DNA of 64,000 bases from Chthoniobacterales bacterium (GTDB lineage Bacteria > Verrucomicrobiota > Verrucomicrobiia > Chthoniobacterales > JACTMZ01), in contig JBIJDZ010000001.1 in assembly GCA_044343805.1 (NCBI GenBank), forward strand, positions 78,392-142,391, in the 5' to 3' direction. Shown piece after piece: positions 565 to 36,727 of the stretch. A program made the position numbers and the translations under genes. Each line of letters begins with the position of its first letter. Position 1 is the first letter of the stretch. Under the pieces are notes generated by a model that saw only the letters and a program-made list of their open reading frames with translations, did no database searches and had not been told where the DNA came from.

Positions 565-660
565 AACGCGCACACGCTGTTCCCGAAGCCCTCGCGAGGG
601 AAGTGTATTTTTCAGCGGACGCTTGGCAGATCAGTGTTAAAATATTGCCCAACCCACCTC

Positions 661-4393: not shown

Positions 4394-5785
4394 ATGTTTT
4401 ATCGTAAACACAAATTCGCACTGCAGCTGAATCAAAGCGCGGATGCCATAATCCTGGCCGCATCCCTCTACTTCAGCTACGCCCTGCGCGCCTACAATAT
4501 CGTGAATATCGATATTTTTCCCGACATTCCACCGTTGGCAAACTTTTTATGGCTTTTCATGGTTGTATGCCCTTTCGGCCCTCTCTTCTTGGAACTTCAA
4601 GGCTTTTACCAATACCCCCTCGAAAAAAGTGTTCGCCGCTCGTTGCAGCAAATTGCCTACGCCGGATTTTGGGTTGGGTTCGTCATTGGTGCTTGTGTCA
4701 TTTTTTTAAAACTCAGCATCCCAAGCCGATCCGTCTTCTTGATTTTTCTGGCCATTGCGCCTGCCGGATTGCTGTTACGCGAGGCACTTTTCCGGTCTAT
4801 TTACATGCGCATACTGTTAAAGGGATCGGAAGGCGAAAGCATCATTCTCGCTGGTTCACCGGATAAAATGAACGAATTGGTGCAAGACCTCTCTCCCATC
4901 CAGCAACTGGAGCTTAATGTGGTTGAAAGGGTCGACCTCGACCGTCAGCCGGTCAAAGACTTGGTCGAGTCCATGCACCGGCATAGTGTAAGTCGCGTGG
5001 TGCTTGCCTTCGGACATCATTCCTCCGACTGCTTGCAAGCCTCCATCACGGCGTGCGAAACGGAGGGCGTCGAAGCATGGATCGCGGCCGATTTCGTTAG
5101 GGCATCCATCGCTCGTCCGACCTATGACTCCCTCGGCAAAACGCCGATGCTGGTTTTCCGAGTTACACCAAGCCTTTCCTGGGCCCTCTTGGTAAAAAAC
5201 CTGATCGACCGCCTGGGAGCTCTCCTCGGGTTGCTTTTGCTTTCGCCCTTGTTTTTGGCCGTAGCCCTCGGAATCAAACTCACCTCGCCCGGACCAGTCA
5301 TTTTTGTGCAGAAACGGGCAGGCAAACATGGCCGGCCTTTCAAGATGTATAAGTTCCGCTCAATGCGAAAAGGTGCAGAGAAGGAACAAGACCTACTCAA
5401 AAACCTGAACCAGATGAGCGGGCCCGTTTTCAAAATCGTCGATGATCCCAGAATCACACCTCTGGGCCGATGGATCCGAAGAACAAGCATTGATGAGTTG
5501 CCGCAACTGTTCAATGTGCTGCTTGGACACATGAGCCTGGTCGGACCCCGCCCCCTGCCGCTCTACGAAGTGGAGAACTTCGAACTCACGGCGCATCGGC
5601 GCCGTTTGAGCATGAAGCCCGGCCTGACCTGCCTTTGGCAAATCAGCGGACGCAATAATGTGCGCGAATTCAGCGACTGGGTTAAACTCGATGTCGAATA
5701 CATCGACAACTGGTCACTCTGGCTTGATTTTAAAATTCTCTTGCGGACGGTGCCAGTAGTCCTCCTTGGAACCGGCGCCCGTTGA
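4394..5785 (+). CDS. Polyprenyl-phosphate glycosylphosphotransferase (WbaP/CpsE-type bacterial sugar transferase)
   Basis: N-terminal TM helices are followed by the C-terminal PF02397-like core (SPGPVIFVQKRAGKHGRPFKMYKFRSM, SGPVFKIVDDPRITPLGRWIRRTSIDELPQLFNVLLGHMSLVGPRP). Confidence 0.85.
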   Translation: MFYRKHKFALQLNQSADAIILAASLYFSYALRAYNIVNIDIFPDIPPLANFLWLFMVVCPFGPLFLELQGFYQYPLEKSVRRSLQQIAYAGFWVGFVIGACVIFLKLSIPSRSVFLIFLAIAPAGLLLREALFRSIYMRILLKGSEGESIILAGSPDKMNELVQDLSPIQQLELNVVERVDLDRQPVKDLVESMHRHSVSRVVLAFGHHSSDCLQASITACETEGVEAWIAADFVRASIARPTYDSLGKTPMLVFRVTPSLSWALLVKNLIDRLGALLGLLLLSPLFLAVALGIKLTSPGPVIFVQKRAGKHGRPFKMYKFRSMRKGAEKEQDLLKNLNQMSGPVFKIVDDPRITPLGRWIRRTSIDELPQLFNVLLGHMSLVGPRPLPLYEVENFELTAHRRRLSMKPGLTCLWQISGRNNVREFSDWVKLDVEYIDNWSLWLDFKILLRTVPVVLLGTGAR

Positions 5786-5846
5786 TAAACTGAGGATTAT
5801 CTGGAAATGATCGGCACAGTCTGATAGATACTTACCTCCAATTTTC

Positions 5847-6809
5847 ATGCCCTCAGCATCTTCCAAGCGTGTATCGTTAGTCACCGGCGGCGCCGGTTTC
5901 CTCGGATCTCATTTGTGCGATCGCCTGCTGAACGAAGGACATCACGTAATCGCGGTCGACAACTTGGTTACCGGTAGCGTGGAAAATATCGCCCACTTGG
6001 CCGGAAACCCAAATTTCCGCTACATCAAACAAGACGTCACGCAATACATCTACCTCCCCGACCAGATAGATTACGTCTTCCATATGGCCTCGCCGGCCAG
6101 TCCGATCGACTATCTTGAATTGCCCATTCAGACAATGAAGGTTGGCGCACTCGGCACACACAATGCCTTGGGCTTGGCTAGATCAAAAGGCGCGGCATTT
6201 TTGCTGGCTTCGACTTCGGAATGCTATGGTGACCCACTGGTGCACCCGCAAACCGAAGATTACTGGGGCAACGTCAACCCCATCGGTCCACGCGGTGTTT
6301 ATGACGAAGCCAAACGCTTCGCTGAAGCCCTGACCATGGCTTACCACCGCTACCATCAGGTGGACACCAAGATCGTTCGTATCTTCAATACTTACGGTCC
6401 GCGCATGCGTTTGCGGGACGGTAGGGTCGTTCCGGCTTTCATCGGCCAAGCCCTGACCGGACAACCCATCACTGTCTTCGGAGACGGTTCTCAGACCCGC
6501 AGCTTTTGTTATGTCTCGGATTTGATCGACGGCATCTTTCGTTTGATGATGAGCCGCTTTCACGAACCGGTGAACATCGGCAACCCCCATGAAATGACGA
6601 TCAAACAATTTGCCGAAGCGATCCGTGACCGCATCGCTCCCACGGCCGAAATCGTTTACAAGCCCCTGCCCGTCGACGACCCGAAAGTCCGGCAACCTGA
6701 CATTACCCGTGCTCGCCGTGAGCTCGGCTGGGAGCCGCATGTTGCTTTTGACGCTGGCATTGACAAAACTATTGAGTACTTTCGGGGACGCGTCGCTGCG
6801 ATCATCTGA
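5847..6809 (+). CDS. UDP-glucuronate decarboxylase (UDP-xylose synthase-like SDR)
   Basis: Has a Rossmann motif ([16 protein letters not shown]) and a YDEAKR catalytic YxxxK context. Length and overall pattern match UXS-type extended SDRs. Confidence 0.8.
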
Positions 6810-6842
6810 ACAAACAGTCACCCCATCAGAAATCCTCCCATC

Positions 6843-7463
6843 ATGAAAAGCACACTTCGTATCTTCGCGTTGATCTTCGGCGCGATTTGTGCGACCCACG
6901 CGCAACAGATCAACCCCGATTTCAAAATCAACAAAATCACCCCGGATTTCACCACGACACCGGAGTACAACTTCAGTTATGGCCCCAAGAACAAACGGGT
7001 CACCAAGAACAAAGACTTTCTCGAGGCTGAAGTCAGTTTTGATTGGCAACCGCGAGACAAAAAGCCCGACTTCCTCGACGAGCTTACCTTCAACTACTAC
7101 ATCCTTTTGAACAATAAGAGCAGCGAAAATCCCAAAGGGACCCTCCTCACCGGCACAGTCACCCACATCGCTATTCCCCAAGCTAAAAGCATGAATTCCG
7201 TCATGTACGTCAGCCCGCGCACGCTGGAGCGCTTCTTTGGCGGCAAGACTCCCAACAATATCACCGCTGCGGTGGTCGATGTTGGCGTGACGATTACGAA
7301 ACAAGGCCAACTCGTTGCTGAAGCAAGCTGGCAAGGCCGGGGGCAATGGTGGTTGAATTACCAACAAGTCAGCGGATATGTTTTGAACAAGAGCGAAACC
7401 CCCTTTGCGCCCCTCGCTTGGGACTACTACGAGGCGATCAAAACAAAATCTGGCGGCATGTAA
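6843..7463 (+). CDS. Secreted protein of unknown function; first gene of the pilMNOPQ-like operon (position equivalent to Akkermansia Amuc_1102)
   Basis: Has a Sec signal peptide (MKSTLRIFALIFGAICATHA/QQ) and no recognisable enzymatic motif. It starts 33 nt after the UXS stop and ends 30 nt before pilM. The Amuc_1102 equivalence rests on synteny only. Confidence 0.55.
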   Translation: MKSTLRIFALIFGAICATHAQQINPDFKINKITPDFTTTPEYNFSYGPKNKRVTKNKDFLEAEVSFDWQPRDKKPDFLDELTFNYYILLNNKSSENPKGTLLTGTVTHIAIPQAKSMNSVMYVSPRTLERFFGGKTPNNITAAVVDVGVTITKQGQLVAEASWQGRGQWWLNYQQVSGYVLNKSETPFAPLAWDYYEAIKTKSGGM

Positions 7464-7493
7464 CTGGCTACCGGTAGTATCATTTTTCACTGC

Positions 7494-9227
7494 ATGGCTA
7501 AATCACCCACCCGCGTTGCCTCAGTTAATCTCGGCATGCAGACCGTCACCATGGCGGTGTTTGACGTTGCCGCTGGTGGCGGGCTGACTTTATCCACTTA
7601 CGCGCAAGCCGAGTTGATCGCGGATCCAGCAGCAGACGCGACTCGCGCCGGACAACTTCGTTTGGTGCTGGGGGAGTTACGCGAGAAAACCGGATGGAAA
7701 GGCGCCTCGATTGCTTGCGCCGTCCCATCTCAGGGCGTTTTCACCCGTTTCGTCAAAATCCCTAAAGTCGATGCAGACCAAGTCGGACAGGTGCTTTTTT
7801 TCGAGGCCCAACAGAACGTCCCCTACCCGATCGAGGAGGTTGCCTGGAGCTATCAAGTGCTACCTGAGAGAGACGCCGAAAAGCTCAGCGCGCTGATTCT
7901 TGCCACCAAACTCGAATCCCTCGAGGAATGCGTCGACGCTATCCGCGGAGCCAAGCTGGAGCCTGATTTAATCGAAACTTCGCCCACGGCGCTCTACAAT
8001 GCATTTCGGTTCAACTATCCAGAAATTGCCGGCTGCACACTGTTGATCGATATCGGTTCACGCACAACCAATCTGATTTTTATCGAGGGCAACGAAATAT
8101 TCATCCGCACCTTGCCGATCGGAGGCAACTCCATCACCGGGGCTTTGCACAAACGCTTCGACGCCCGCTCTTTCAACGAGGTCGAGGAGTTAAAACGCAG
8201 CGAGGGCATGATTCCTCCGCCAGGCAATTACAGCGGAGCCAAAAGCGAGGACATCGCCGAGATCGGCAAAATCGCCCGTACTGTGATGACTCGCATTCAT
8301 AACGAAATCACCCGTTCCATCACTTTTTACCGGACCTCACAAAAAGGCTCGGCGCCCGCGATGGTTTTTCTGGCTGGGGGCGGAGCTTCGCTGCCTTACT
8401 CAGTCGAATTCTTCAAAGAAAAACTCTCTTTGCCGGTTGAATACTTTAATCCGCTGCGAAGGGTCGGCGTCGGTTCGGGAGTCGATGTCTCTGTGCTGCC
8501 TAAAATAGCCCACCAACTCGGTGAATGCGTCGGGTTGGGCATCAATCTCTTGCTGGATCATTGTCCCCTTGCCATTTCACTCAAATCTCCAAGTTTAGAG
8601 CGAATCAAGGCAGACAAAAAACGACGCCCGTTTCTTGTGGCCGCGGCGGCTCTAATGGTGGGAGCATTGGTTGTCACCGGTCTTTACTATCAAAAGGCGG
8701 CGGATCTTGTTTCGCAGATCAATCAAGAGCTGCAGGATGAGATTGATCCGCTCCAAAAAATATCGGGCCAAATAGCAAACTTTACCAGAGAGCGTGACCA
8801 AATCCTGAAAGACGGGGCCGATCTGGCAGCCGCCCCCCTGCTCCGATCCGGCTGGTCAGCCATCCTGAACGAACTCAACCGCCACCAACCCGAAAAATAC
8901 CTCTGGATCACAAAGCTTGCCCCGTATCCGGCGGCCCCGGGATTAGGCACCACCAGCAAAAGCCCCGCTCCTTCCCCGAACGCCAACAATACAGGTGCAG
9001 CCAATCATCAGGAACCTGCGGTAACGGCACTTTCCATCGAGGGGCTTTACTTGGAGAACCCCGAGGGTCCGGCTGTGGTGGATAAATTTGTGAACGAATT
9101 GTCGAAGTCGGAACTTTTCGACACCTCCGGCGACAGCATTGTCAAACTTCGCGCCACGCAGAGCGGTAATGCATGGGCTTACGAATTCCAAATCCTGCTA
9201 CCGCTCAAAAATCCGATTCCTCTCTGA
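7494..9227 (+). CDS. PilM-PilN fusion: cytoplasmic actin-like ATPase-fold domain, one TM helix, periplasmic coiled coil and PilN-like domain
   Basis: PilM-like motifs are LLIDIGSRTTNLIFIEGNEIFIRTLPIGGNSITGAL and VFLAGGGASLPYSVEFFKEKLSLPVEYFNPL. The TM helix RRPFLVAAAALMVGALVVTGLYY lies at about nt 8622-8690. After it come a heptad-like stretch, a P/A/S/N-rich linker and a small alpha/beta C-terminus. Confidence 0.75.
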   Translation: MAKSPTRVASVNLGMQTVTMAVFDVAAGGGLTLSTYAQAELIADPAADATRAGQLRLVLGELREKTGWKGASIACAVPSQGVFTRFVKIPKVDADQVGQVLFFEAQQNVPYPIEEVAWSYQVLPERDAEKLSALILATKLESLEECVDAIRGAKLEPDLIETSPTALYNAFRFNYPEIAGCTLLIDIGSRTTNLIFIEGNEIFIRTLPIGGNSITGALHKRFDARSFNEVEELKRSEGMIPPPGNYSGAKSEDIAEIGKIARTVMTRIHNEITRSITFYRTSQKGSAPAMVFLAGGGASLPYSVEFFKEKLSLPVEYFNPLRRVGVGSGVDVSVLPKIAHQLGECVGLGINLLLDHCPLAISLKSPSLERIKADKKRRPFLVAAAALMVGALVVTGLYYQKAADLVSQINQELQDEIDPLQKISGQIANFTRERDQILKDGADLAAAPLLRSGWSAILNELNRHQPEKYLWITKLAPYPAAPGLGTTSKSPAPSPNANNTGAANHQEPAVTALSIEGLYLENPEGPAVVDKFVNELSKSELFDTSGDSIVKLRATQSGNAWAYEFQILLPLKNPIPL

Positions 9228-10105
9228 TGGACTGGTTCAAACAAAATCCATTTCTCGGCAGTTTGGCATTTGCGACAGTGCTCTTTGTCATTGCAAGTGG
9301 CTATTACGCCTACACTACCCACTCGGAGTTTGTTCTGCAGACGGAGGAATATTCCGTGAAGACGTCAGCTGTGGCGCAAGCGCGCGGCACCAAGCCCTTT
9401 CCGAACCAGACCAATTTGGAAGCCGCCCAAGCCGAAAAAGCTGAAGCGGAAAAAATTATCGGCGAGATGAATGCACTGTTGTCCCAGAAATCCGGAAAGG
9501 TAGACCAATCTCTCAATCCTCAGGCTTTTCAAGACCGCTTGAATGCCCAAGTAAGCAAGATCGAAAAAGCCGCCCGATCAGCACAGGTCGAGCTCCCTGA
9601 AAACTTTTACTTGGGCTTCGACGAATATCGCAACCAGCTACCATCTGCCACAGCTGCCCCCCTGCTCGGCCAGCAACTCGATTCCATCTCGAGTGTTATC
9701 ACCATTCTGGTCGAGGCCGGTGTGAAGGCAATCAACGCCGTGAGGCGCCAGCCACTCTCTGTTGAATCGGCCAAACAAGACACCACAGATAAACCCGAAA
9801 AAAATCCTAACAACCTGATTCTGGCACCATTTGAAGTTTCTTTTGTCGCCGACCAGACAAACTTTCGTCTGGCCCTCAATAAGATTGTCACCGCCGACCC
9901 CATAATCTTTGTTCGCTTGGTCAGTGTCGCCAATTCGCAGCAAAGCCCTCCCGCCAAACAGAACGGCATGAACTCCGATCCGCAGAACAACGCTGATCAA
10001 CCCAGTGCCGAAACGTCGATCCCCGTTCTTCTTGGAAAGGAAACTCTCAACGTAGATCTACGTCTGGCCACCATTTCCGCCGACAACACCTCGGACAAAA
10101 AATAG
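9227..10105 (+). CDS. PilO-like bitopic membrane protein with Amuc_1100-like architecture
   Basis: The ATG at 9227 overlaps the pilMN stop (TGATG). The order of elements is an N-terminal TM helix (FLGSLAFATVLFVIASGYYAY), a long helical/coiled segment, FYLGFDEY, a ferredoxin-like segment (LILAPFEVSFVADQTNFRLALNKIV), a low-complexity linker and a terminal beta strand (ETLNVDLRLATIS). The 9173 start in the track is inside pilMN. Confidence 0.6.
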   Translation: MDWFKQNPFLGSLAFATVLFVIASGYYAYTTHSEFVLQTEEYSVKTSAVAQARGTKPFPNQTNLEAAQAEKAEAEKIIGEMNALLSQKSGKVDQSLNPQAFQDRLNAQVSKIEKAARSAQVELPENFYLGFDEYRNQLPSATAAPLLGQQLDSISSVITILVEAGVKAINAVRRQPLSVESAKQDTTDKPEKNPNNLILAPFEVSFVADQTNFRLALNKIVTADPIIFVRLVSVANSQQSPPAKQNGMNSDPQNNADQPSAETSIPVLLGKETLNVDLRLATISADNTSDKK

Positions 10106-10116
10106 CTCCCGGATTC

Positions 10117-11157
10117 ATGGATTATCTCAAAGCCAACTACGACCGGATTCTCTTGGTTGTCGCGTCGCTTGCCCTCGTCGGCGCATCCGCCCACGCCCTG
10201 CTCGGGCTAGGCAATATCCGGGACGAATACGTGAAATCTCCGGCGCCAGCCTCGGGGGTGGCTTTTGAACCGAACCAGGCACTTTCGCGAATTCGCAGCG
10301 AGGTGGATCAACTGGTTGATCCGGCAAAATTCGCCTGGCGCGAGGGCGCCACATTGCTTTTTGCCAGTCGCGTCTACCTCCTGCGCGACAACCAATTGAT
10401 CGATATTTTTGAAAGCGATCTCGATCTTTTTGAGGGTATTCCAAACAAGTGGGTACTCGACAATAAACTCGATTACACTGACACCGGTCTGCCCTCCAGA
10501 GACGCCGATGGCGATGGTTTCACTAATCTTGAAGAGTTCTCGGAAAAAACCGACCCCCGCGACCCTGAATCCAAACCGGGATCCTGGAAAAAATTGCGGA
10601 TGCTGAGCAGCAAAATCGACAAGTTGAGGACCAAATTCGTCTCCCTGCCGACTGGTAGCCTGGACCAAGTTGCCATCAACACCATCAGTGCGGAAAATCC
10701 CACCGCTCTCAGCGGTGGCACCAAGTTCTACAAAAAGGGCGAAACGATCAAGCTGGCGGAGATCCTGCCGAATCGTAAGGAGTCGGAAAAAGAGACCGAC
10801 CTCAAGTTTGTCGATGCCAAGATGATCAAGCGCTTCAATCCATCCATTAATGCTGATGAACAAATCCCCCAAATCACGCTCCGCAACATGGTTGACAATC
10901 GTGAAATAGATCTCCTCATGGGCGAAGTCAAAGATTCCCCTTACTCACTAGCGACACTGCAAGATATCCGACCGGGCGGCCAAAGTTTTGAACTTCGTAC
11001 GGGCGAGAGTTTTTCCATCGACGGCAAATCTTACAAATTAATTGACGTCGACATGGAAAACGCCATTATCTCCGACATCGAATCTGGGGAAAGGCACTCT
11101 ATCCCTCAGCAGACCACGAGTCTTCCCCCGGCTTCTAAACAAAACTCCGATTCATGA
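10117..11157 (+). CDS. Membrane-anchored periplasmic protein in the PilP position (Amuc_1099-position), with a thrombospondin-type-3-like acidic Ca-binding motif
   Basis: Has an N-terminal TM anchor (ILLVVASLALVGASAHALLGL) and the motif DADGDGFTNLEEFSEKTDPRDP at about nt 10501-10566. The C-terminus is beta-rich (GESFSIDGKSYKLIDVDMENAIISDIESGE), reminiscent of PilP/GspC HR domains. The stop overlaps the secretin ATG (ATGA). Confidence 0.5.
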   Translation: MDYLKANYDRILLVVASLALVGASAHALLGLGNIRDEYVKSPAPASGVAFEPNQALSRIRSEVDQLVDPAKFAWREGATLLFASRVYLLRDNQLIDIFESDLDLFEGIPNKWVLDNKLDYTDTGLPSRDADGDGFTNLEEFSEKTDPRDPESKPGSWKKLRMLSSKIDKLRTKFVSLPTGSLDQVAINTISAENPTALSGGTKFYKKGETIKLAEILPNRKESEKETDLKFVDAKMIKRFNPSINADEQIPQITLRNMVDNREIDLLMGEVKDSPYSLATLQDIRPGGQSFELRTGESFSIDGKSYKLIDVDMENAIISDIESGERHSIPQQTTSLPPASKQNSDS

Positions 11158-13574
11158 GCGGTCTCACCCCCTCCATTTCCTATTTTGCTAAGCATACTTG
11201 CCTTTTGCTTTTTGCGACACTTACCACACCCTTGACCCTGCTGGGCGGTGGAACGGGAAATGCTCCCAACGCCGGGGTTGAAGCCCAAGCCGAGCTTGAA
11301 ATCGCCAAACGGATGAAGTTGGCCGAGGAATACGCCCCCCAAGCGATGCAAAGGGGTTCGGTTGCCTTGATGGAGAGGGACTACGAGACCGCCTTCGCCC
11401 AATACAAAGCTGCTGTTGACGCCCTTCCGGATGCGCCCCAAGTAAAAGAACTGCGCACGACGGCGCTGGATGGTTTTTCCAAAGCAGCTATGGGCCTAGC
11501 CGAACAGCGTATTGCCGAAGGACGTTGGGAGGATGCCAAGGAAACCGTGCAAAAGATCCTCGAACCGCAATACAACCCGAACTACAAACCTGCGCAGCGC
11601 CTGCTCGCCCGCTTGGAAGCTCCTGATTATTTCAACAAGACCGTGACGCCGGGCCATGTGGCCAAAGTTGAGGAGGTCAAAAAACTCCTCGTCGAAGCTC
11701 AAGGCCTCTACGACTCCGGACGTTTCGATGAGTCTTTTGCCAAATACGAGGCAGTCATCCGCTTAGATCGCTACAACGTCGCGGCTCGTCGTGGCATGGA
11801 GCAAGTCAACCTGGCCCGCACACGCGTTGCTGATGCAGCCTACAACGAAACGCGAGCCTCTATGATTACCCAAGTCGATAAAGCTTGGGAAACTCCCGTC
11901 CGTCGTGTCGACCTCGGTCCGGCTGCTCTCATTGAACAACCGATGCTGACCACGCGTGGAACGCAGTCGGTCAACCGTAAACTGGACGAAATCATTATAC
12001 CCCGCATCAACTTCACGGAAACCACAGTCCGCGCAGCCATTGAATACCTGAAGACCCGCTCGGAGGCTTTGGACACCGACCCGGCAGATCGAGGAGTCAA
12101 TATCGTCCTGAAAATTGATCCCGCGGCCGAATCGCAAACAGTCACTCTCGATCTCGCCAATCTCCCCCTCCGCGAAGCGCTTGCTTACATTACCAACTTG
12201 GCCAGTTTGAAATTTAAAGTTGAACCTTATGCCGTATTGGTCGTGCCTCTTTCCGAACCCACGGAGACTCTTATCACCAAAGAATACCGCGTACCGCCGG
12301 GCTTCATCACAAACTTGCCATCTACTGGCTCAGCAACGAGCGGTGGATCGGCCGCTCAGAGCGGTGCAAAAGTCTTTCTCGAATCCCAAGGGGTTCAATT
12401 CCCTGCCGGCGCAAGTGCAAATTTCTTGGCCAGCAGCAGCCGCCTGATCGTTCGAAACACTCAGGAAAACCTCGATTTGGTTGACGCCCTTGTTGAAAGC
12501 TCAACCGGCGCAGTCCCCTCACAAGTTGAGATTGAATCGAAGTTTGTCGAAATCTCGCAGAACAACCTCAAAGAACTTGGTTTTGACTGGTTGCTCGGAC
12601 AATTCGCACTACCCGGTGGCTCCGGTGTGTTCGGGAGCGGCGGCACCAGCGGCAATCAATTTAATTCGACCGTCCCCCCATCTGGTGGAACCCCTTACTA
12701 CCCATTTATCGTCCCAGGTACAACAACCCCAGTCGGGCAATATCCTGTCACGGCCGGCAATCGCAGCGGTCAAACAGCTATCACCGGGAACGCCCTAGAT
12801 GGCCTCCTTTTTGGCACTCCCGTAGGGCCTGCGGCCGGCATTCTTTCCTTGGCCGGGGTCTTTACCAACCCGCAATTCCAAGTTGTATTGCGAGCACTCA
12901 ATCAGAAAAAAGGTATCGACGTCCTATCTGCACCAAAAGTCACAACCAAGAGTGGTACATCAGCTACTGTTGAAATCGTCCGCGAATTCCGCTACCCAGC
13001 CGAATATGACCCACCGCAAATCCCCCAAACGACCGGTGTAGGGGTACAGCCAGTAACTCCCGCCACGCCAACAACATTCACCATGAAACCGACCGGGGTT
13101 CGCTTGGAAGCCGAACCTACTGTGGGTTCAGATAACTACACCATTGACCTGCGACTTGTTCCTGAAGTAACCGAATTTGAAGGATTCATAAATTACGGGT
13201 CGCCTATCCTCAACCGTGGTGTTGTGGTGACAGACAACGTCATCAACTACCCGGTTTTCAGCGAAAGAAAGGTAGAGACTTCTGTCAGCATTTACGATGG
13301 GCAAACCGTGGTTCTTGGCGGATTGATGCGGGAGGACGTCCAAAAAGTGAACGATAAAACTCCCTTGATTGGCGACATCCCTTTTGCGGGTGCACTGTTC
13401 CGGTCCCAGTCGGACCAGCACATCAAAAGAAACTTGGTCATCTTTGTCACCGTCAACCTTATGGATCCTGCCGGACAACCGATGGCGCAAATGAAACAAG
13501 AAGCTATGGCCTCCGAGGAGATGGCTATGGATAGTGCCATGATGTCATCTGTGGAGCCCCCCTTACCGCAATAA
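11154..13574 (+). CDS. Secretin (PilQ/GspD superfamily) with an N-terminal TPR-like helical region, paralog 1
   Basis: The C-terminal secretin core is GQTVVLGGLMREDVQKVNDKTPLIGDIPFAGALFRSQSDQHIKRNLVIFVTVNLM. Upstream are N-domain-like segments (IIIPRINFTETTVRAAIEYL, VFLESQGVQFPAGASANFLASSSRLIVRNTQENLDLV). Confidence 0.85.
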   Translation: MSGLTPSISYFAKHTCLLLFATLTTPLTLLGGGTGNAPNAGVEAQAELEIAKRMKLAEEYAPQAMQRGSVALMERDYETAFAQYKAAVDALPDAPQVKELRTTALDGFSKAAMGLAEQRIAEGRWEDAKETVQKILEPQYNPNYKPAQRLLARLEAPDYFNKTVTPGHVAKVEEVKKLLVEAQGLYDSGRFDESFAKYEAVIRLDRYNVAARRGMEQVNLARTRVADAAYNETRASMITQVDKAWETPVRRVDLGPAALIEQPMLTTRGTQSVNRKLDEIIIPRINFTETTVRAAIEYLKTRSEALDTDPADRGVNIVLKIDPAAESQTVTLDLANLPLREALAYITNLASLKFKVEPYAVLVVPLSEPTETLITKEYRVPPGFITNLPSTGSATSGGSAAQSGAKVFLESQGVQFPAGASANFLASSSRLIVRNTQENLDLVDALVESSTGAVPSQVEIESKFVEISQNNLKELGFDWLLGQFALPGGSGVFGSGGTSGNQFNSTVPPSGGTPYYPFIVPGTTTPVGQYPVTAGNRSGQTAITGNALDGLLFGTPVGPAAGILSLAGVFTNPQFQVVLRALNQKKGIDVLSAPKVTTKSGTSATVEIVREFRYPAEYDPPQIPQTTGVGVQPVTPATPTTFTMKPTGVRLEAEPTVGSDNYTIDLRLVPEVTEFEGFINYGSPILNRGVVVTDNVINYPVFSERKVETSVSIYDGQTVVLGGLMREDVQKVNDKTPLIGDIPFAGALFRSQSDQHIKRNLVIFVTVNLMDPAGQPMAQMKQEAMASEEMAMDSAMMSSVEPPLPQ

Positions 13575-16159
13575 TGAAAGCAAAATTTCTGGCATTAGGT
13601 GCCGCAACAAGTCTCCTTTTCTCATTGTCATCGGGACTGGCCGGTTCGGGCGGCCAATCGGACTACAATTCGTTAGATAGCGGCGCGGATCGTGAAATCA
13701 CCCGCCGTCAACAAAACGTTGCACTGGCCGAAGACGCCATACGCCGCGGCGATGCTGCCTTGCAGGCAAACAACCTGGAGGCAGCCTACCTCGCTTACAA
13801 GGAAGCCGTGGATTTGATACCCGATGGCGATGCCACCAAAAGCCTGCATGCCAGGGCGCTCGCGCGCTACTCCTCCACCGCAATCCGTTACTCCGAGTAT
13901 CTTGTGAGTGAGGGCGAATATGCTAAGGCGGAAGCCACCGCACGTGAAGTTATCGAACCGCGCTACAATCCGGATTACAAGCCCGCGGCCGTTTTTCTAT
14001 CGCGTCTGGAGCAACCTGATTACTTCAACAAAACCATCACTCCGCAGTTTGCCATGGACCGCGAGCGGGTCACGGAATTGCTCAACGAGGCCAACGGTTA
14101 CTTTGATTCCGGTCGCTACGATATGGCTTTGAAGCGTTACCAACAAGTTCTCGCCATCGACAAATACAACGCCGCTGCACTTCGCGGAATGGAGCAGGTA
14201 GAAGTAGGTAAGCAGCAATACTACGACAGCGCCTACAATGAGACTCGGTCACGCATGCTTTGGCAGGTCGACAAGGCGTGGGAAAGCCCCAAACGGAAAT
14301 TCGCGGATTCCCGCTCCACAGATTCTGCTTCACTGCAGGAAGAGCGCCGAGGAACGGAAATCATGATTTCCCGCCTCAATAGAATCATTATTCCACGCGT
14401 CGATTTTCGTGACACCACCATTCGTCAAGCTGTCGGTTTTCTTCAACAAAGAAGCCGAGATTTGGACACAACCGAGTCTGATCAGGACCGTCGTGGTGTA
14501 AACATCGTTTTGAAGCTTCCCACCACACCGGCCCCGGCATCAGACACAGAAGGCAGCAATGTAACGCCTACCCCCAGCTCCGACAGCCGTATCACGCTCA
14601 ATTTAACCAATGTCCCTCTTTACGAAGCCTTGCGGTATGTTGCGACTCTCTCTGGTCTCAAAGTCAAGGTTGAGCCCTTCGCCGTCTCCTTGGTTCCTCT
14701 CTCCGAACCGACGGATACACTGGAGCAACGTGAATTCAAAGTGCCGCCAGGGTTTATAGCTGAAACTTCACAAGCCTCCGACCCCCTAGCTGTGGCGGGG
14801 CGCCAGTCCTTGGATAGTAGTGCCCCAAGGCTGTCAGCACGACAGAACGCCAGGGTCTTTCTTGAATCCCAAGGTGTTGAATTTCCCTCTGGAGCTAGTG
14901 CGAATTTCATTCCCGGCAGCAGCCGATTGGTTGTTCGCAACACCGTCTCCAATCTTGACCTGATCGAATCTCTCGTCGATGCCGCCATGGCAGAACAGCC
15001 CACCCAAGTGGAAATTGAGGCTAAATTTGTCGATATATCGCAAAATAACCTTAAGGAGCTTGGCTTTGATTGGGCCTTAGGGCCTTTCGCCTTGCCGGGA
15101 TCGGATGCGATATTCGGCAGCGGAGGCACCACCATACCAGCCGGCCAGGCCGCCAACTGGCCCTTTGTTGATCCTTCAACAGGTCAAATCATTGGTCAAG
15201 ACACGGTGACCCGTGGCCTCCGCAGCGGAAGCGGTGTTGGTCCAAACAGAGGTCTATCCGTCAACAGCCTCAATGCCCTGTTAGCACAAAATGTCGGCGC
15301 TCCGGTGGGAGGCACCGCTCCCGGATTTTTTGCCTTATCCGGTATATTTACCAACCCGCAATTTCAAGTCGTCATCCGCGCACTTAACCAAAAGAAAGGG
15401 GTTGACTTGATGGCGGCTCCGAAAATCACCACTAAAAGCGGACAGCAGGGCACCATTAAGATCAACCGCGAGTTTCCTTACCCCCAGCAATACGACCCAC
15501 CGCAAATACCACAGGCAACGGGTGGTGGCAACAACAACGTTTTAGTTCCTCTTATCAACACTCCTCCTGTCGTAACTCCAAGCTTTCCAACGGATTTTAC
15601 CACCAGAAATCTGGGAGTGACTTTGGAAGTGACCCCGCAGGTCGGCTCGGACGGCTATACTATCGACCTTACTTTGGCTCCCGAGGTTGTTGATTTTGAT
15701 GGTTTTATCAACTACGGCTCCCCCATTTTCACGCCTATTCAAGTTGCCAACGTCAACCCATTGAATCCAGCACTCTTAGTTACTGTTCCCCAGCTTTTGA
15801 CAGATAACGTCATCAATCAGCCGATCTTCAGTGTTCGCAAGGTCACCACAAACGTCAGTATCTGGGACGGCCAAACGGTAGCTCTTGGCGGCTTGATCCG
15901 TGAGGACGTGCAGAAAGTGAATGATAAAGTCCCCATCCTCGGCGATATTCCTTTGGCCGGTGCACTCTTCCGCTCGGATATTGACCAAAAAATTAAACGC
16001 AACCTTATTATCTTTGTCACCGCTCGCTTGATGGATGCCGCCGGACAGCCGTTGCGGCCTGAAGACGATGTTGATCAGGAGGAAATTGTTGAACCCTTGG
16101 GACTTCCGGAAGACCTCAAGAAGCCCAGCATCAGCGCCAAAGGTTTTCGCCAAAAATAA
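13574..16159 (+). CDS. Secretin (PilQ/GspD superfamily) with an N-terminal TPR-like helical region, paralog 2
   Basis: The ATG overlaps the paralog-1 stop (TAATG). It has a signal peptide (MKAKFLALGAATSLLFSLSSGLAG). The secretin core is GQTVALGGLIREDVQKVNDKVPILGDIPLAGALFRSDIDQKIKRNLIIFVTARLM. It is collinear with paralog 1. Confidence 0.85.
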   Translation: MKAKFLALGAATSLLFSLSSGLAGSGGQSDYNSLDSGADREITRRQQNVALAEDAIRRGDAALQANNLEAAYLAYKEAVDLIPDGDATKSLHARALARYSSTAIRYSEYLVSEGEYAKAEATAREVIEPRYNPDYKPAAVFLSRLEQPDYFNKTITPQFAMDRERVTELLNEANGYFDSGRYDMALKRYQQVLAIDKYNAAALRGMEQVEVGKQQYYDSAYNETRSRMLWQVDKAWESPKRKFADSRSTDSASLQEERRGTEIMISRLNRIIIPRVDFRDTTIRQAVGFLQQRSRDLDTTESDQDRRGVNIVLKLPTTPAPASDTEGSNVTPTPSSDSRITLNLTNVPLYEALRYVATLSGLKVKVEPFAVSLVPLSEPTDTLEQREFKVPPGFIAETSQASDPLAVAGRQSLDSSAPRLSARQNARVFLESQGVEFPSGASANFIPGSSRLVVRNTVSNLDLIESLVDAAMAEQPTQVEIEAKFVDISQNNLKELGFDWALGPFALPGSDAIFGSGGTTIPAGQAANWPFVDPSTGQIIGQDTVTRGLRSGSGVGPNRGLSVNSLNALLAQNVGAPVGGTAPGFFALSGIFTNPQFQVVIRALNQKKGVDLMAAPKITTKSGQQGTIKINREFPYPQQYDPPQIPQATGGGNNNVLVPLINTPPVVTPSFPTDFTTRNLGVTLEVTPQVGSDGYTIDLTLAPEVVDFDGFINYGSPIFTPIQVANVNPLNPALLVTVPQLLTDNVINQPIFSVRKVTTNVSIWDGQTVALGGLIREDVQKVNDKVPILGDIPLAGALFRSDIDQKIKRNLIIFVTARLMDAAGQPLRPEDDVDQEEIVEPLGLPEDLKKPSISAKGFRQK

Positions 16160-16212
16160 AAGCCATACGCTGGCTTGATGGTGAGCGCCTAAGTAGTTGA
16201 CAACATCAATAT

Positions 16213-16809
16213 ATGCTACTCGGTGTTACCGGAGGCATTGCCTCAGGCAAGTCGACTTTTCGGCGTCTCCTTACTGCGAAGCATAAGTTTACGGTATTCG
16301 ATGCCGATGAAAGCGTTCACGATCTCCTCGCGAAGGATGAAAGAGTCATCTCGGCAATTCGTACCCACTTCGGAGATTCAGTCCTGAACTTTGATGGCGG
16401 GATTAATCGTCCCGCGCTGCGCGAAGCTGTCTTTACCGACAACAAACTAAGGAAGCAATTGGAAGAGATTATTCACCCTGTTGTCCGGCACCAATGGCAG
16501 TTGCTGCGGCAGTCCTGCATGGCCAAAAATATGGACTTTTTGGCGGAAATCCCCCTTCTATTCGAAACCAGTGCTGAAAATTTTTTTGATGCGACGATTT
16601 TGGTCGCCACATCCACTCCGGTGCAACAAGTTCGCCTGGCGGCACGTGGACTTTCACCACAAATTGCCCAAGCCATGCTTGCCAGCCAATGCCCTATGGG
16701 CGAAAAAGAAAAGCGTGCCACCGTCGTGGTCTGGAACGACGGAAGCCTTATCGGATTGGAGCAGCAAGCTCGCATGCTTATCGAACGACTTTTCCCATCT
16801 CCGACATGA
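16213..16809 (+). CDS. coaE: Dephospho-CoA kinase
   Basis: Has the P-loop MLLGVTGGIASGKST at the extreme N-terminus. Length (198 aa) and pattern are typical. Confidence 0.9.
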   Translation: MLLGVTGGIASGKSTFRRLLTAKHKFTVFDADESVHDLLAKDERVISAIRTHFGDSVLNFDGGINRPALREAVFTDNKLRKQLEEIIHPVVRHQWQLLRQSCMAKNMDFLAEIPLLFETSAENFFDATILVATSTPVQQVRLAARGLSPQIAQAMLASQCPMGEKEKRATVVVWNDGSLIGLEQQARMLIERLFPSPT

Positions 16810-18143
16810 ACAAGTCCTCCGAGGTTTCCATCACCGGGAAAAAGACGGGGCGCGCCACTTTTCCACAGCAATCCTCCGAGGTATCCGGTGCATCATTCTG
16901 GTTGTCTGACCTGCAAGCTCTCACTCATGCCGAACTTGCCGGACTAATCCAACGCTATGAATTGCGTTTGCGCCCCGATGGAACCAAACGCCATTTGATC
17001 TTCGACCTCTGTCGCTTCTTTCTCTCACTCGGTGCTGAAATATACGCCGAAGGAATGGTTGAAGACCTCGGGGATCACGCGATGTTGCGCTGGCCCATCC
17101 ACAACTTTGCCAGCGGACCGGATGACCTTTTTGTATCCATCGGGCTTGTTCGCGAATACGGCTTACAAACGGGCCTGCAAATTTGCGGAACCCTGAAGTC
17201 TCCCGGCGAACGCGATCGATATTGCGGACTGGCCAAGATATCGTCCATTGAAGGCATCCCTCCAGCAGAGTGGAAGCCGTTGATCCCCTTCGACAAACTC
17301 ACCCCGCTGTTCCCGCAGGAGCGTATTATTCTCGAAGCGGTCAAAGATTCCACGCTTAGCACTCGAGCCGTGGATTTGATCGCTCCACTTGGCAAAGGCC
17401 AGCGAGCACTCATCGTCGCGCCGCCCCGCACAGGAAAAACCATCCTCCTGAAACATATCGCACAAGCGATACGCTCGACCTCTCCTGAAGTTCGATTGAT
17501 TTTACTACTCGTTGATGAGCGTCCCGAGGAAGTCACCGACTTGCGGAGGTCGATCGACGCCGATATCTACAGCTCAACTTTCGACGAGTCCCCCCAACGA
17601 CACACCCAACTTTCTGAATTTGTGATCGAGCGGGCCAAGCGCTTGGTCGAACTCGGCCAGGATGTTGTCATTCTTCTCGACAGCATCACCCGCTTGGCCC
17701 GCGGCTATAACAATCTCCAACCGGGCAAGGGCCGCATCATGTCCGGTGGCGTCGACTCCAAAGCGCTCATGAAACCCAAACGTTTCTTCGGGGCCGCACG
17801 TAATACGGAAGAGGGTGGCAGCCTCACCATTGTCGCCACTGCTCTCGTCGAGACCCAAAGCCGCATGGACGATCTGATATTCGAGGAATTCAAAGGCACC
17901 GGCAATATGGAGGTGCACCTCGACCGGACGATTGCCGATCAGCGAATTTTTCCCGCCATTCATGTGACCAAGTCGGCCACACGACGCGAGGAAAACCTTT
18001 ATCATCCGGATGAACTTGCGCGCGTGATTGTGCTACGCAAGCAATTGAACGAACTCCCGGCCGTTGAGGCAATGGAGATGCTCGCGCGCAATCTACAACG
18101 CACCAAAACGAACGCCGAGCTGCTCCTCGGCGGTCTGCGCTGA
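16806..18143 (+). CDS. rho: Transcription termination factor Rho
   Basis: Motifs present are [16 protein letters not shown] (Walker A), [12 protein letters not shown] and [29 protein letters not shown]. The ATG at 16806 overlaps the coaE stop (ATGA). The longer track ORF from 16689 lies inside coaE. Confidence 0.95.
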
Positions 18144-22517: not shown

Positions 22518-23306
22518 ATGACGTTAGCCCGTTACACTGGCAGCATCATATTCTCCTTCGCCCGCTACTTGGGTGAACTTTTTTTACTGGCCTCCGAAAC
22601 CATTCGAGGCATCGCGCATGGTCAGGTGCGCTACCGCCTCGTTATTCATCAAATCTACGAAATCGGGTACCGCTCGCAACTGGTGGTCTTGATCACCGGC
22701 GCTTTCACTGGCGCGGTGTTTGCCACGCAGACTTTTTTCCAATTCCACCGCCTGCAAATGGATACCGCTGTGGGACCTGTCGTCAGCGTCTCGATGTTTC
22801 GCGAACTTGGACCGGTGCTTTGCGGGCTGATGGTGGCCGGTCGCGTCGGCGCCGCGATGTCGGCCGAGTTGGGCACAATGAAAGTCACCGAGCAACTCGA
22901 TGCCCTGCGCGCCTTGGCAGTTCATCCGGTGGACTACCTCGTCGTGCCGCGGTTCCTCGCCATGCTTGTTTCGATGCCGCTGCTTGTCGCCGAATGCATC
23001 GCGATCGGCATCTTGGCCGCATATGTCGTAACAACGCAGATCCTCGGCGTTTCCGAGGTATACTACCTCCATAATATGCTCCACTTCACCGGCGGAAGGG
23101 ATGTCGCGATGGGCTTGATCAAAGGAATGGTTTTCGGTGTCGTTATCGTGTTCATCAGCTGCCATCAGGGGCTCAACGCCAAGGAAGGAGCAGTGGGCGT
23201 CGGTCGCGCGACGACCGAAGCCGTTGTCATCGGCTCTCTCTTTATTCTCATCGTGAACTTTTTTCTGACGATGACGCTCAACATTTTCTTTCCCGCAGGC
23301 AAATGA
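22518..23306 (+). CDS. mlaE: MlaE-family ABC transporter permease
   Basis: Has the MlaE-like pattern (IYEIGYRSQLVVLITGAFTGAVFATQ, MSAELGTMKVTEQLDAL). It is followed by overlapping mlaF. Confidence 0.85.
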   Translation: MTLARYTGSIIFSFARYLGELFLLASETIRGIAHGQVRYRLVIHQIYEIGYRSQLVVLITGAFTGAVFATQTFFQFHRLQMDTAVGPVVSVSMFRELGPVLCGLMVAGRVGAAMSAELGTMKVTEQLDALRALAVHPVDYLVVPRFLAMLVSMPLLVAECIAIGILAAYVVTTQILGVSEVYYLHNMLHFTGGRDVAMGLIKGMVFGVVIVFISCHQGLNAKEGAVGVGRATTEAVVIGSLFILIVNFFLTMTLNIFFPAGK

Positions 23307-24067
23307 GCCAGCATCACCAACCGCGCGTGGCCATCTCGGTCGAGAACCTGGTTCAGACACTCGGGGGACAAGAAATCCTGCGCGGGTTCAGCCTCAAGGT
23401 TTATGAGGGGGAAACCCTCGTTCTCCTCGGTCGGAGCGGAGGGGGTAAAAGCGTGTTTCTCCGGCACTTGATCGGCCTCATCCAGCCCGTCAGCGGCTCT
23501 ATTACTGTTGACGGTCACAATGTCGCCCAACTCAAGGAAAGAGAACTCACTCCTGTGCGTCGGTGCATGGGCATACTCTTCCAAAACGGCGCGCTCTTCG
23601 ACTCGATGACCGTGGCTGACAACGTAGCCTTCCCCCTCCGTGAGCGAGGGGAAACGGACGAAACTCTTATCGTGGAAAAAGTCAGGAATGCTTTGCAGAT
23701 GGTTGACCTTGACGGCCAGCAATCAAAAATGCCGGTCAACCTCAGCGGGGGCATGCGAAAACGGGTTGCCCTTGCCCGCGCACTCATCAACCAACCTCGC
23801 TGCATGCTTTACGACGAGCCGACAGCAGGACTCGACCCCATCGTGGCCGACAGCATCGACCTCCTTATCCGTCGACTGCAACGCAAACTCGGCGTCACCT
23901 CCATTGTTGTCACCCACGACATGAAAAGCACCCTCACCATTGCTGACCACGTGGCTCTCTTGCACGAAGGACGTTGCTACTTTTACGGCACCTGCGATCA
24001 ATTGCGCGCCTCGACGGATCCGGTCATCCGTGATTTTGTGGAGGGGCGCTCACACGAAGAACCCTGA
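23303..24067 (+). CDS. mlaF: MlaF-family ABC transporter ATP-binding protein
   Basis: Has Walker A (LLGRSGGGKS), the ABC signature (LSGGMRKRVALARAL) and Walker B (MLYDEPTAGLD). Its start overlaps the mlaE stop by 4 nt. Confidence 0.85.
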   Translation: MSQHHQPRVAISVENLVQTLGGQEILRGFSLKVYEGETLVLLGRSGGGKSVFLRHLIGLIQPVSGSITVDGHNVAQLKERELTPVRRCMGILFQNGALFDSMTVADNVAFPLRERGETDETLIVEKVRNALQMVDLDGQQSKMPVNLSGGMRKRVALARALINQPRCMLYDEPTAGLDPIVADSIDLLIRRLQRKLGVTSIVVTHDMKSTLTIADHVALLHEGRCYFYGTCDQLRASTDPVIRDFVEGRSHEEP

Positions 24068-24070
24068 ACC

Positions 24071-24877
24071 ATGTACAACCGCGATTCCCGCATAGAAACC
24101 AAAGTCGGCTTATTTGTACTCCTCGGCCTCGCTGTCGTGGCGATCACCGTCGTTTACTTCGGGCGCCTCGGTCAGGGACTGCAGAAATTTTACGACCTGC
24201 AAGTTGACTTTCCCAACGCCAGCGGATTGCTCGCCGGAGCCGACGTGCTCCTCGGTGGGGCCCGTATCGGCTACGTGTCAAAACAACCCCGCGTGCTTCC
24301 GGCCATGCAGGGCGTGGCGGTGGAATTGAAAATTCAAGATGACGTCGCCCTCCCAGCCGAATCCCGTTTTATTATCGGCAGCTCCGGTTTGCTCGGTAAC
24401 CGTTTTGTCGACGTGCTTGTTGATCCGGATGTCGACTTGGAAAAAAAGTTGGAACCCGGTTCCATTGTTCAAGGCCAGCGAGAGACGGGCATCGAAGATC
24501 TGACCCGCGAAAGCAGCGAGATGCTTGCCGACATCCGCAAAGCGGTCAACACCATCAACACCGCACTGGACCGCCTCAACGAAACAGCCTTGAGCGAGCA
24601 ATCACTGGAAGACCTGCGCGCGTCCATCGCCAATCTCAAGAGCGGCAGCGCAGGCTTCACGGAGATCGGCAAAGCCTCGAAAGATCTCGAAGCAGCCGCG
24701 GCCGATGCCCGCAAGATTCTTTCGGCCGCCCGCACCGGCCCGGGAGTTCTTCCCATGTTGTTGAACGATCGTCAAACAGCCGGCGATTTTCGTGCGATCC
24801 TCTCCAACGTTCGCCGGCATGGCGTGCTTTGGTACAAAGACTCTTACCGTCCCGAATCCGCCGCCCCAGCACGCTGA
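24071..24877 (+). CDS. mlaD: MlaD/MCE-family substrate-binding protein with a C-terminal helical extension
   Basis: Has an N-terminal TM anchor and an MCE-domain pattern (FPNASGLLAGADVLLGGARIGYV). It starts 3 nt after mlaF. Confidence 0.8.
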   Translation: MYNRDSRIETKVGLFVLLGLAVVAITVVYFGRLGQGLQKFYDLQVDFPNASGLLAGADVLLGGARIGYVSKQPRVLPAMQGVAVELKIQDDVALPAESRFIIGSSGLLGNRFVDVLVDPDVDLEKKLEPGSIVQGQRETGIEDLTRESSEMLADIRKAVNTINTALDRLNETALSEQSLEDLRASIANLKSGSAGFTEIGKASKDLEAAAADARKILSAARTGPGVLPMLLNDRQTAGDFRAILSNVRRHGVLWYKDSYRPESAAPAR

Positions 24878-36618: not shown

Positions 36619-36727
36619 GCAGGTTGTTTTGTTTTCCACAGATCTACCGCGCTGGCAACGCCAATGCCGCAGCTCCACACGGGAAGAATCGACTTGGAGC
36701 TTACAACATTACAGTCTGAATTCCACT

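Follow-up and report, generated by a model that had tools for sequence, protein, structure and literature searches.

The closest described relatives of the genes considered here lie in the Amuc_1098–1102 cluster of Akkermansia muciniphila. Amuc_1098 was named PilQ and located to the outer membrane by immunogold labelling; it was reported to combine an N-terminal domain of three tetratricopeptide repeats (TPR), "resembling the pilotin proteins", with a C-terminal secretin domain, and such a structure was regarded as "unique but conserved" in Verrucomicrobia (Ottman et al. 2016, PMC4960237). The cluster has one secretin (Ottman et al. 2017, PMC5332112). In the stretch of 64,000 nucleotides of a Chthoniobacterales genome analysed here (contig JBIJDZ010000001.1, positions 78,392 to 142,391; hereafter the window), an operon of Amuc_1102, Amuc_1101, Amuc_1100, and Amuc_1099 homologues, as assigned by NCBIfam scoring, is closed by two secretin genes, termed secretin A (first position) and secretin B (second position). 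Both are intact paralogues of the Amuc_1098 ("PilQ") family, and both have persisted since a single old tandem duplication gave rise to them. The TPR–secretin fusion and the whole-length architecture were already known (Ottman et al. 2016; NF042912) and, given the pilotin likeness described in 2016, the TPR and self-piloting point of a preliminary description of this DNA is a rediscovery. What appears to be new is the conserved tandem paralogue pair across a freshwater and soil group of Verrucomicrobia; no such pair was found in the literature searched, and a 2026 paper on Amuc_1098 contains no mention of secretin, TPR, tetratricopeptide, PilQ, AlphaFold, or domain.

The two proteins are built like Amuc_1098 over their full length, with about three TPRs behind the signal peptide, then the periplasmic domains, and the secretin domain at the C-terminus, and their genes have the same operon partners. 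However, Akkermansia has one secretin, whereas this genome and a large Chthoniobacterales/Terrimicrobiaceae clade have two diverged tandem copies, and the Amuc_1100 and Amuc_1101 homologues of the window score just below the equivalog cut-offs. Type IVa PilQ with PilMNOP (Pseudomonas, Myxococcus, and Vibrio 6w6m) shares with A and B the secretin fold and also the operon logic, in which a PilM-like gene is followed by membrane or periplasmic partners and then by the secretin. Unlike type IVa PilQ, A and B fall far under the TIGR02515 cut-off, carry a TPR module in the place of AMIN domains, and are encoded by two secretin genes, not one. The pilotins PilF, PilW, Tgl, and TadD resemble the front end of A and B in the TPR fold and in the association with secretins, but pilotins are separate and lipidated proteins, whereas the TPR module of A and B is fused at the secretin N-terminus and comes with no lipobox. 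HxcQ of Pseudomonas aeruginosa is a liposecretin that is self-piloting through N-terminal lipidation; the likeness lies in the idea that a secretin can do without a separate pilotin, while the lipid anchor of HxcQ is lacking in A, B, and their orthologues. RhcC1 and RhcC2 of rhizobia constitute a single secretin that is split in two parts. Secretin function in the rhizobial type III secretion system also comes from two genes (PMC4311626), but A and B differ from RhcC1/RhcC2 in that both are full-length paralogues.

The open reading frames (ORFs) of A and B encode 806 and 861 aa and are joined by a TAATG overlap (Table 1), as the preliminary description had read them. Both proteins match NF042912, the model of the Amuc_1098 family type IV pilus outer membrane protein, over model positions 5–804 of 805, and the TPR front end therefore belongs to the family definition. 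The C-terminal Secretin domain PF00263 was found at residues 581–770 of A (112 bits, E 3e-32) and 603–820 of B (116.3 bits, E 1.4e-33), against a cut-off of 27.5. In BLASTP, A and B gave a single collinear alignment of 820 columns (50% identity, E = 0) that runs from near residue 30 to near residue 780 of A, in agreement with the earlier statement that the two are collinear throughout. The gap-free N-terminal segment of 116 residues, which had been put by eye at about 55% identity, is 55.2% identical (A 137–252 against B 128–243). The contrast noted between similar cores and diverged DNA also holds, as the secretin core has 70% protein identity while the aligned codons have 57% DNA identity and their synonymous sites are saturated (proportion of synonymous differences, pS, 0.77). 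The scores for type IVa PilQ (TIGR02515: A 104.9 and B 118.6 versus 284.35) and type II GspD (TIGR02517: A 132 and B 129.1 versus 351.35) are below the cut-offs, and no AMIN domain was found in A or B by Pfam at E ≤ 0.1. The gene identities as assigned here can be taken as nearly certain. An assembly artefact or a recent duplicate is ruled out by the 57% nucleotide identity and by the recurrence of the pair in dozens of independent assemblies, and a pseudogene is ruled out by the intact ORFs and by ratios of non-synonymous to synonymous change (dN/dS) of 0.04–0.06.

The distribution of the pair was followed in a scan with one genome per GTDB species, in which 387 loci matched and the best 80 were examined. 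The closest genomes are Chthoniobacterales metagenome-assembled genomes (MAGs) from lakes and soils, with the best match 93% identical. Two secretin ORFs, in the same order and in the same operon, are present in nearly all of the 80 loci with enough downstream DNA. Carriers of the pair include 'Spartobacteria bacterium LR76' (L028, record QAYZ01), which is not labelled a MAG; L034 is a Terrimicrobium sp. MAG. In a neighbour-joining tree, the first-position copies form one clade and the second-position copies another (bootstrap 50/50 each), and with a broader taxon set the support was 97/100 for clade A and 100/100 for clade B. These separate clades indicate one duplication with no detectable gene conversion since. 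Strong purifying selection acts on both copies: compared with their nearest orthologues, in L001, A has a dN/dS of 0.044 and B one of 0.061. Across 69 related loci, the A and B genes overlap in 15 and lie 0–30 nt apart in a further 41 (56/69), and the gap at the junction has a median of about 10 nt, although these values rest on approximate start calls; the A and B genes were never separated in about 69 genomes. The earlier view that the duplication is old and maintained is thus borne out by the separate A and B clades (about 57 complete pairs), by purifying selection, and by the tight junction kept in relatives.

The preliminary description had also held that a copy lost or decayed in close relatives would count against it. 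Both copies are retained in every pair-clade locus with enough downstream DNA, but five related loci in Chthoniobacteraceae-type MAGs (L068, L070, L076, L077, and L078) have a single secretin that is directly followed by coaE-rho. These single-copy lineages either predate the duplication or have lost one copy: neighbour-joining placed A and B as sisters, relative to the single-copy lineages, in 28/100 bootstrap replicates, and polarised shared-derived sites gave 1–6 sites for each of the three topologies. In five MAG contigs (L022, L024, L036, L039, and L058), of which four are from 'MFD' MAGs and L058 is not, the secretin genes are broken up into several ORFs. Assembly frameshifts seem a more likely explanation for this fragmentation than pseudogenes. 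The pair is also present in more distant AT-rich lineages, namely L081 (789 + 670 aa, followed by coaE-rho) and L082 (780 + 718 aa), where the second secretin is the shorter one (10387–12399 in L081 and 2858–5014 in L082). The first copies of both lineages have the A-specific short barrel loop and hence belong to the A lineage. The second copy of L081 aligns to B only from B residue 169 onward, with 44 residues ahead of that point, which indicates that most of the TPR module (about 125 residues) was lost, while the first copy retains the full TPR. Still more distant members (L084 and L085) are single-copy. Beyond these loci, a HMMER search of cluster representatives gave 1,484 matches at E ≤ 1e-30. 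Among the 150 best of those listed, the majority have alignments that start in the TPR region, which makes the TPR–secretin architecture a widespread one.

Although A and B share most conserved positions, some stable features set them apart. The two clades have 189 conserved positions with the same residue in both, while 11 are fixed differently between them, and 5 of these 11 lie in the 200-residue core that is 70% identical. The barrel loop just after the YPxEYDPPxIPQ motif has a fixed length of 22 residues in A and about 35 in B, in single-copy proteins, and in outgroup proteins; the A lineage thus has a fixed deletion of about 13 residues in this loop of the secretin domain. The motif itself (Y-P-x-E-Y-D-P-P-x-I-P-Q; A 614–639, about 12993–13070, and the B 636–672 region) is near-invariant in the whole family. 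The N0 loop measures about 17 residues in A and about 20 in outgroups, and it reaches about 38 in B and about 49 in single-copy proteins. The C-terminal tails are unrelated, with that of A being Met-rich with a predicted helix at 777–789 and that of B acidic and disordered. Moreover, non-synonymous change is about 1.3 times higher in B than in A in 5/5 comparisons, while the mean conservation of the secretin core is 0.82 for A and 0.84 for B.

The reading favoured here, with a probability of roughly 0.4, is that A and B co-assemble into mixed A/B rings of one pilus-like machine. Through the overlap of their genes, A and B would be translationally coupled and made together from one mRNA, and their subunits might then co-assemble into mixed rings in a single machine, not into two independent pores, while the alignment complex of this machine would be encoded upstream in the same operon. 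Co-assembly would be expected from translational coupling together with the sharing of nearly all conserved positions, since with 189 shared against 11 clade-fixed positions the ancestral ring interfaces should still be compatible. Generally, co-expressed paralogues of duplicated homomers with intact interfaces form heteromers by default. The observation that the two genes were never separated also favours mixed rings. The roles of the subunits might be divided, with A carrying the shortened barrel loop and B having given up most of its TPR module in one distant lineage (L081); one subunit type could provide TPR docking or assembly and the other a different barrel loop. The hetero-oligomeric channels raised in the preliminary description remain plausible on indirect evidence, while the further step, that the paralogues are obligate partners in a hetero-oligomeric ring, with divided roles, fixed throughout the history of this family-level clade of Verrucomicrobiota, is doubtful.

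Several points weigh against mixed rings. Solved secretins are homo-oligomers, often of odd symmetry, with 13 to 15 chains per entry, and an odd ring symmetry is ill-suited to strict A/B alternation. To our knowledge, no heteromeric secretin of paralogous subunits has been demonstrated; a phrase search of the literature found none, nor anything relevant on heteromeric, mixed, or two-secretin systems. Duplication leaves genes in tandem by default, and a tandem position does not by itself show co-function. On the side of mixed rings, the distance matrices of A and B correlate with r = 0.970, the highest of 15 operon-protein pairs (partial r 0.64, the second highest), but this covariation of rates says little, since paralogues of one fold in one operon covary anyway.

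Alternatively, A and B might form separate homo-oligomeric channels that divide an ancestral job, for example by function (pilus extrusion against protein secretion or DNA uptake) or by site in the envelope, and that either dock on the same PilM/N-O-P-like inner-membrane complex or serve a second machine encoded elsewhere. This is the main rival, only a little less probable than mixed rings. It fits with every solved secretin being homo-oligomeric, with the stable clade features (the 22-residue barrel loop and short N0 loop of A, the long disordered N0 loop of B, and tails of 14% identity), with the faster change of B in all five comparisons, and with a window devoid of PilB, PilC, PilT, and pilin genes, so that other machinery lies elsewhere; yet the operon holds only one set of PilM/N-O-P-like genes, A and B stay together in about 69 genomes despite their deep divergence, and very few clade-fixed differences are available to insulate the interfaces. 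A much less probable proposal is that one copy is no longer chiefly a channel and serves the other as an assembly or scaffold factor, acting through its TPR module as a built-in 'pilotin' or as a periplasmic or peptidoglycan tether, which would amount to self-piloting in trans. The TPR module is genuine, has a constant length of about 202 aa family-wide with a near-invariant D-x-x-N-x-x-A-R-R-G motif, and in L081 is complete in only one of the two copies; its pilotin likeness was remarked upon by Ottman et al. 2016 (PMC4960237). But the entire secretin core is kept in both copies under equal constraint (0.82 for A and 0.84 for B), neither is a lipoprotein, and no pilotin occurs among the 60 best TPR profile matches listed. 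As well, the N-terminal TPR module would sit at the end distal to the outer membrane, going by known secretins in general.

It is very improbable that the second gene is merely a redundant duplicate, kept for the dosage of a very abundant outer-membrane protein or drifting to loss. The five related single-copy loci would agree with this reading, but identity between the copies has dropped to 50% with saturated synonymous sites while both remain under strong purifying selection, both are retained in each pair-clade locus with enough downstream DNA, and split second-copy ORFs occur only in L022, L024, L036, L039, and L058, where they are read as assembly frameshifts. Stacked coaxial channels, with one secretin above the other, had also been raised earlier and are hardly to be expected: nothing speaks for them beyond the presence of two secretins, while the complete domain order and the barrel core are the same in both and neither has a feature for a different envelope level. 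Mixed rings thus remain the preferred reading, and a co-translated, stably inherited pair of diverged full-length secretins offers a natural test of heteromeric giant rings. No secretin channel that combines two different full-length subunits is known to us, and an A/B ring, if real, would be the first. The pair also asks how duplicated ring subunits divide roles, with every solved example having one subunit type. The family member in Akkermansia is more abundant than any other outer-membrane protein of that bacterium and is encoded in the same cluster as the immunomodulatory Amuc_1100. If A and B were two ordinary homomeric pores, the locus would be a modest comparative-genomics note.

Models of both proteins were built with AlphaFold2 (AF2) from a 136-sequence alignment of diverse family members, with a mean predicted local distance difference test score (pLDDT) of 86.4 for A and 85.0 for B, and the domain order is alike in both (Table 1). 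When model A was searched with Foldseek against the PDB, the top match was the competence-pilus PilQ of Vibrio cholerae (6w6m, E 1e-20). PilQ, GspD, BfpB, and RcpA were matched at E 1e-20 to 1e-15, and the set of PilQ (including that of Pseudomonas), GspD, BfpB, InvG, RcpA, and phage pIV at E 1e-20 to 3e-10, with the N0–N1 domains of MxiD and XcpQ among the lower-ranked matches. A, B, and their orthologues have ordinary Sec signal peptides ending in ..AG, followed by (S/P)GG. No lipobox is conserved, with chance-level matches in 4/57 A and 5/57 B orthologues, and from the absence of a conserved lipobox cysteine it follows that A and B are not lipoproteins; a lipid anchor, which the preliminary description had proposed to look for, is accordingly set aside, and the liposecretin idea is rejected. 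Judging by their signal peptides, the domains they contain, and their homology to solved secretins, A and B would each be Sec-exported, non-lipidated channel subunits of the outer membrane, and their TPR, N0-like, and N1-like domains would hang into the periplasm.

The TPR-like nature of the N-terminal regions, which had been proposed from the sequence, is supported by four lines of evidence. Pfam reports TPR_19 in A (26.5 versus a gathering score of 25), and TPR_2 (27.3 versus 27) and TPR_11 (27.2 versus 26.8) in B. A profile of the N-terminal 220 residues of 23 family members, searched against PDB sequences, matches consensus or engineered TPR proteins at E about 1e-33 to 1e-19, and also OGT, Hop, PP5, and FKBPs. 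The AF2 models are helical in this region, and Foldseek with model A found the TPR domains of FKBP52, FKBP51, FKBP38, and Hop at E 2e-3 to 8e-3. The module consists of roughly three TPR motifs together with a short inserted helix and a long capping helix, and it is about 200 aa long rather than the roughly 250 aa first suggested (about 202 aa in every family subgroup). The last TPR and the capping helix (A 205–245, about 11766–11888; B 196–236) contain the most conserved motif of the N-terminal module. Among 136 diverse members, D205, N208, A211, R234, and W245 are near-invariant in the pattern I-D-x-Y-N-x-A-A-R-R-G ... V-D-x-x-W-E, or in short form D-x-x-N-x-x-A-R-R-G plus W. Constant length and a near-invariant motif argue for a conserved binding role, and the sequence suggests that the TPR module may have a specific conserved binding partner, which could be Amuc_1099/Amuc_1100 or peptidoglycan, in replacement of the AMIN domains of classical PilQ.

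Among the profile matches listed, the likeness to pilotins did not extend beyond the fold. PilF, PilW, Tgl, TadD, and BamD are absent among the 60 best PDB matches listed for the TPR profile, all of which are generic or designed TPR proteins, so that of the TPR/pilotin similarity proposed earlier the TPR part stood and the pilotin part did not. A pilotin-specific similarity of the module was rejected on the same matches. The absence of both a lipid anchor and such a similarity speaks against a pilotin-like mode of action, and in known secretin structures the N-terminus, here the TPR end, is the end distal to the outer membrane, which points in the same direction.

The region 6843–16159 forms the distal part of a type IV pilus-like envelope operon of verrucomicrobial type, in which the Amuc_1102-like gene is followed by the PilM/PilN-like Amuc_1101 homologue, the Amuc_1100-like gene, the Amuc_1099-like gene, secretin A, and secretin B; the synteny of the Amuc_1099–1102 partner genes is kept across related loci. 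The Amuc_1101-family protein, whose PilM-like domain has an ATPase fold, passes TIGR01175 pilM (134.6 versus 133) and has a full-length match to NF045709 below the cut-off (550.8 versus 650). Past its PilM domain the protein continues with a basic stretch and the transmembrane (TM) segment FLVAAAALMVGALVVTGLYY, followed by a C-terminal domain that spans about 170 aa. With a TM segment and an extra domain after the PilM domain, the product is more than a PilM- or FtsA-like protein and looks like a PilM–PilN fusion, the PilN part being suggested by this layout. In that case, the 'pili-like' cluster of Akkermansia would amount to a compact pilMN-O-P-Q operon. The Amuc_1100-family protein matched the Amuc_1100 crystal structures 6KNY and 6LAD by phmmer (E 1e-11), and a literature search for a PilO-like description of Amuc_1100 gave false matches only. 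Its ORF as listed overlaps the preceding gene by 55 nt. The NF038287 match begins at residue 19, and the true start is therefore probably near 9227 or downstream of it.

Table 1. Coordinates and supporting evidence for the secretin pair, its domains, and the upstream operon genes (positions in the window).
Feature	Position	Strand	Residues	Evidence and remarks
Secretin A, 806 aa, first-position paralogue	11154..13574	+		ATG start; NF042912 838.7 bits vs cut-off 750
Secretin B, 861 aa, second-position paralogue	13574..16159	+		ATG start; NF042912 860.5 bits vs cut-off 750
TAATG junction	13572..13576	+		A stop TAA 13572-13574 and B ATG 13574-13576, one shared base
Low-confidence N-terminus with signal peptide			A before 42; B before 35	AF2
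TPR module A, eight helices	11277..11888	+	42-245	AF2 pLDDT >90; Pfam TPR_19; PDB profile; Foldseek
TPR module B, eight helices	13676..14281	+	35-236	AF2 pLDDT >90; Pfam TPR_2, TPR_11; collinear with A module
Disordered linker			A ~250-265; B ~241-251	AF2
N0-like and N1-like domains of A	11946..12506	+	N0-like 265-379; N1-like 405-451	AF2 alpha/beta; weak STN match, residues 327-365
N0-like and N1-like domains of B	14327..14992	+	N0-like 252-389 (disordered insert ~314-338); N1-like 426-473	AF2
Secretin beta-barrel core A	12522..13463	+	457-770	PF00263; AF2 strands
Secretin beta-barrel core B	15005..16033	+	478-820	PF00263; AF2 strands
A-B protein identity, domains				TPR module 47%, N0-like 59%, N1-like 64%, secretin core 70%
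A-B protein identity, linker and tail				Linker after TPR 12%, C-terminal tail 14%
Amuc_1102-family pilus-like protein gene, first of the operon	6843..7463	+		NF042424 112.4 bits vs cut-off 55; position kept in related loci
Amuc_1101-family gene	7494..9227	+		Pfam PilM_2 E 5.4e-28, residues 13-349; then TM segment and C-terminal domain
Amuc_1100-family pilus-like protein gene	9173..10105	+		NF038287 177.6 bits vs cut-off 180, full-length match
Amuc_1099-family gene	10117..11157	+		NF042425 143.5 bits vs cut-off 50; stop overlaps secretin A start (ATGA)

No PilB, PilC, PilT, or pilin gene was found anywhere in the 64-kb window, which implies that other pilus or secretion machinery is located elsewhere in the genome. 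A promoter and terminator scan of 5700–16900 gave counts not above those of shuffled sequence. The housekeeping genes coaE, rho, and rnc lie downstream of secretin B. The Rho ORF as listed (16689–18143) overlaps coaE, its start lying 121 nt within that gene, and its match to Rho family models does not begin before residue 72; Rho has either an N-terminal extension or a real start further downstream.

Several further features lie in other parts of the window. The segment 53223–63985 (minus strand) has a G+C content of 0.48–0.51 versus about 0.56–0.58 elsewhere and carries genes for sugar nucleotides and glycans, which encode a nucleotidyl transferase, two proteins of the 4,6-dehydratase/epimerase family, SAM (S-adenosylmethionine) and C-methyltransferases, and GT2 glycosyltransferases, one of them of 995 aa, as well as a 497-aa ORF without Pfam match; the segment has the look of a variable surface-polysaccharide island. 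Genes for two class A penicillin-binding proteins with transglycosylase and transpeptidase domains are present at 634–2598 (plus strand) and 34105–36678 (minus strand), and a MlaE/MlaF/MlaD-like operon is located at 22518–24877. As well, the gene at 36617–38611 encodes a fusion of a lipase-maturation-factor-like protein with a DCC1-like thiol-disulfide oxidoreductase domain.

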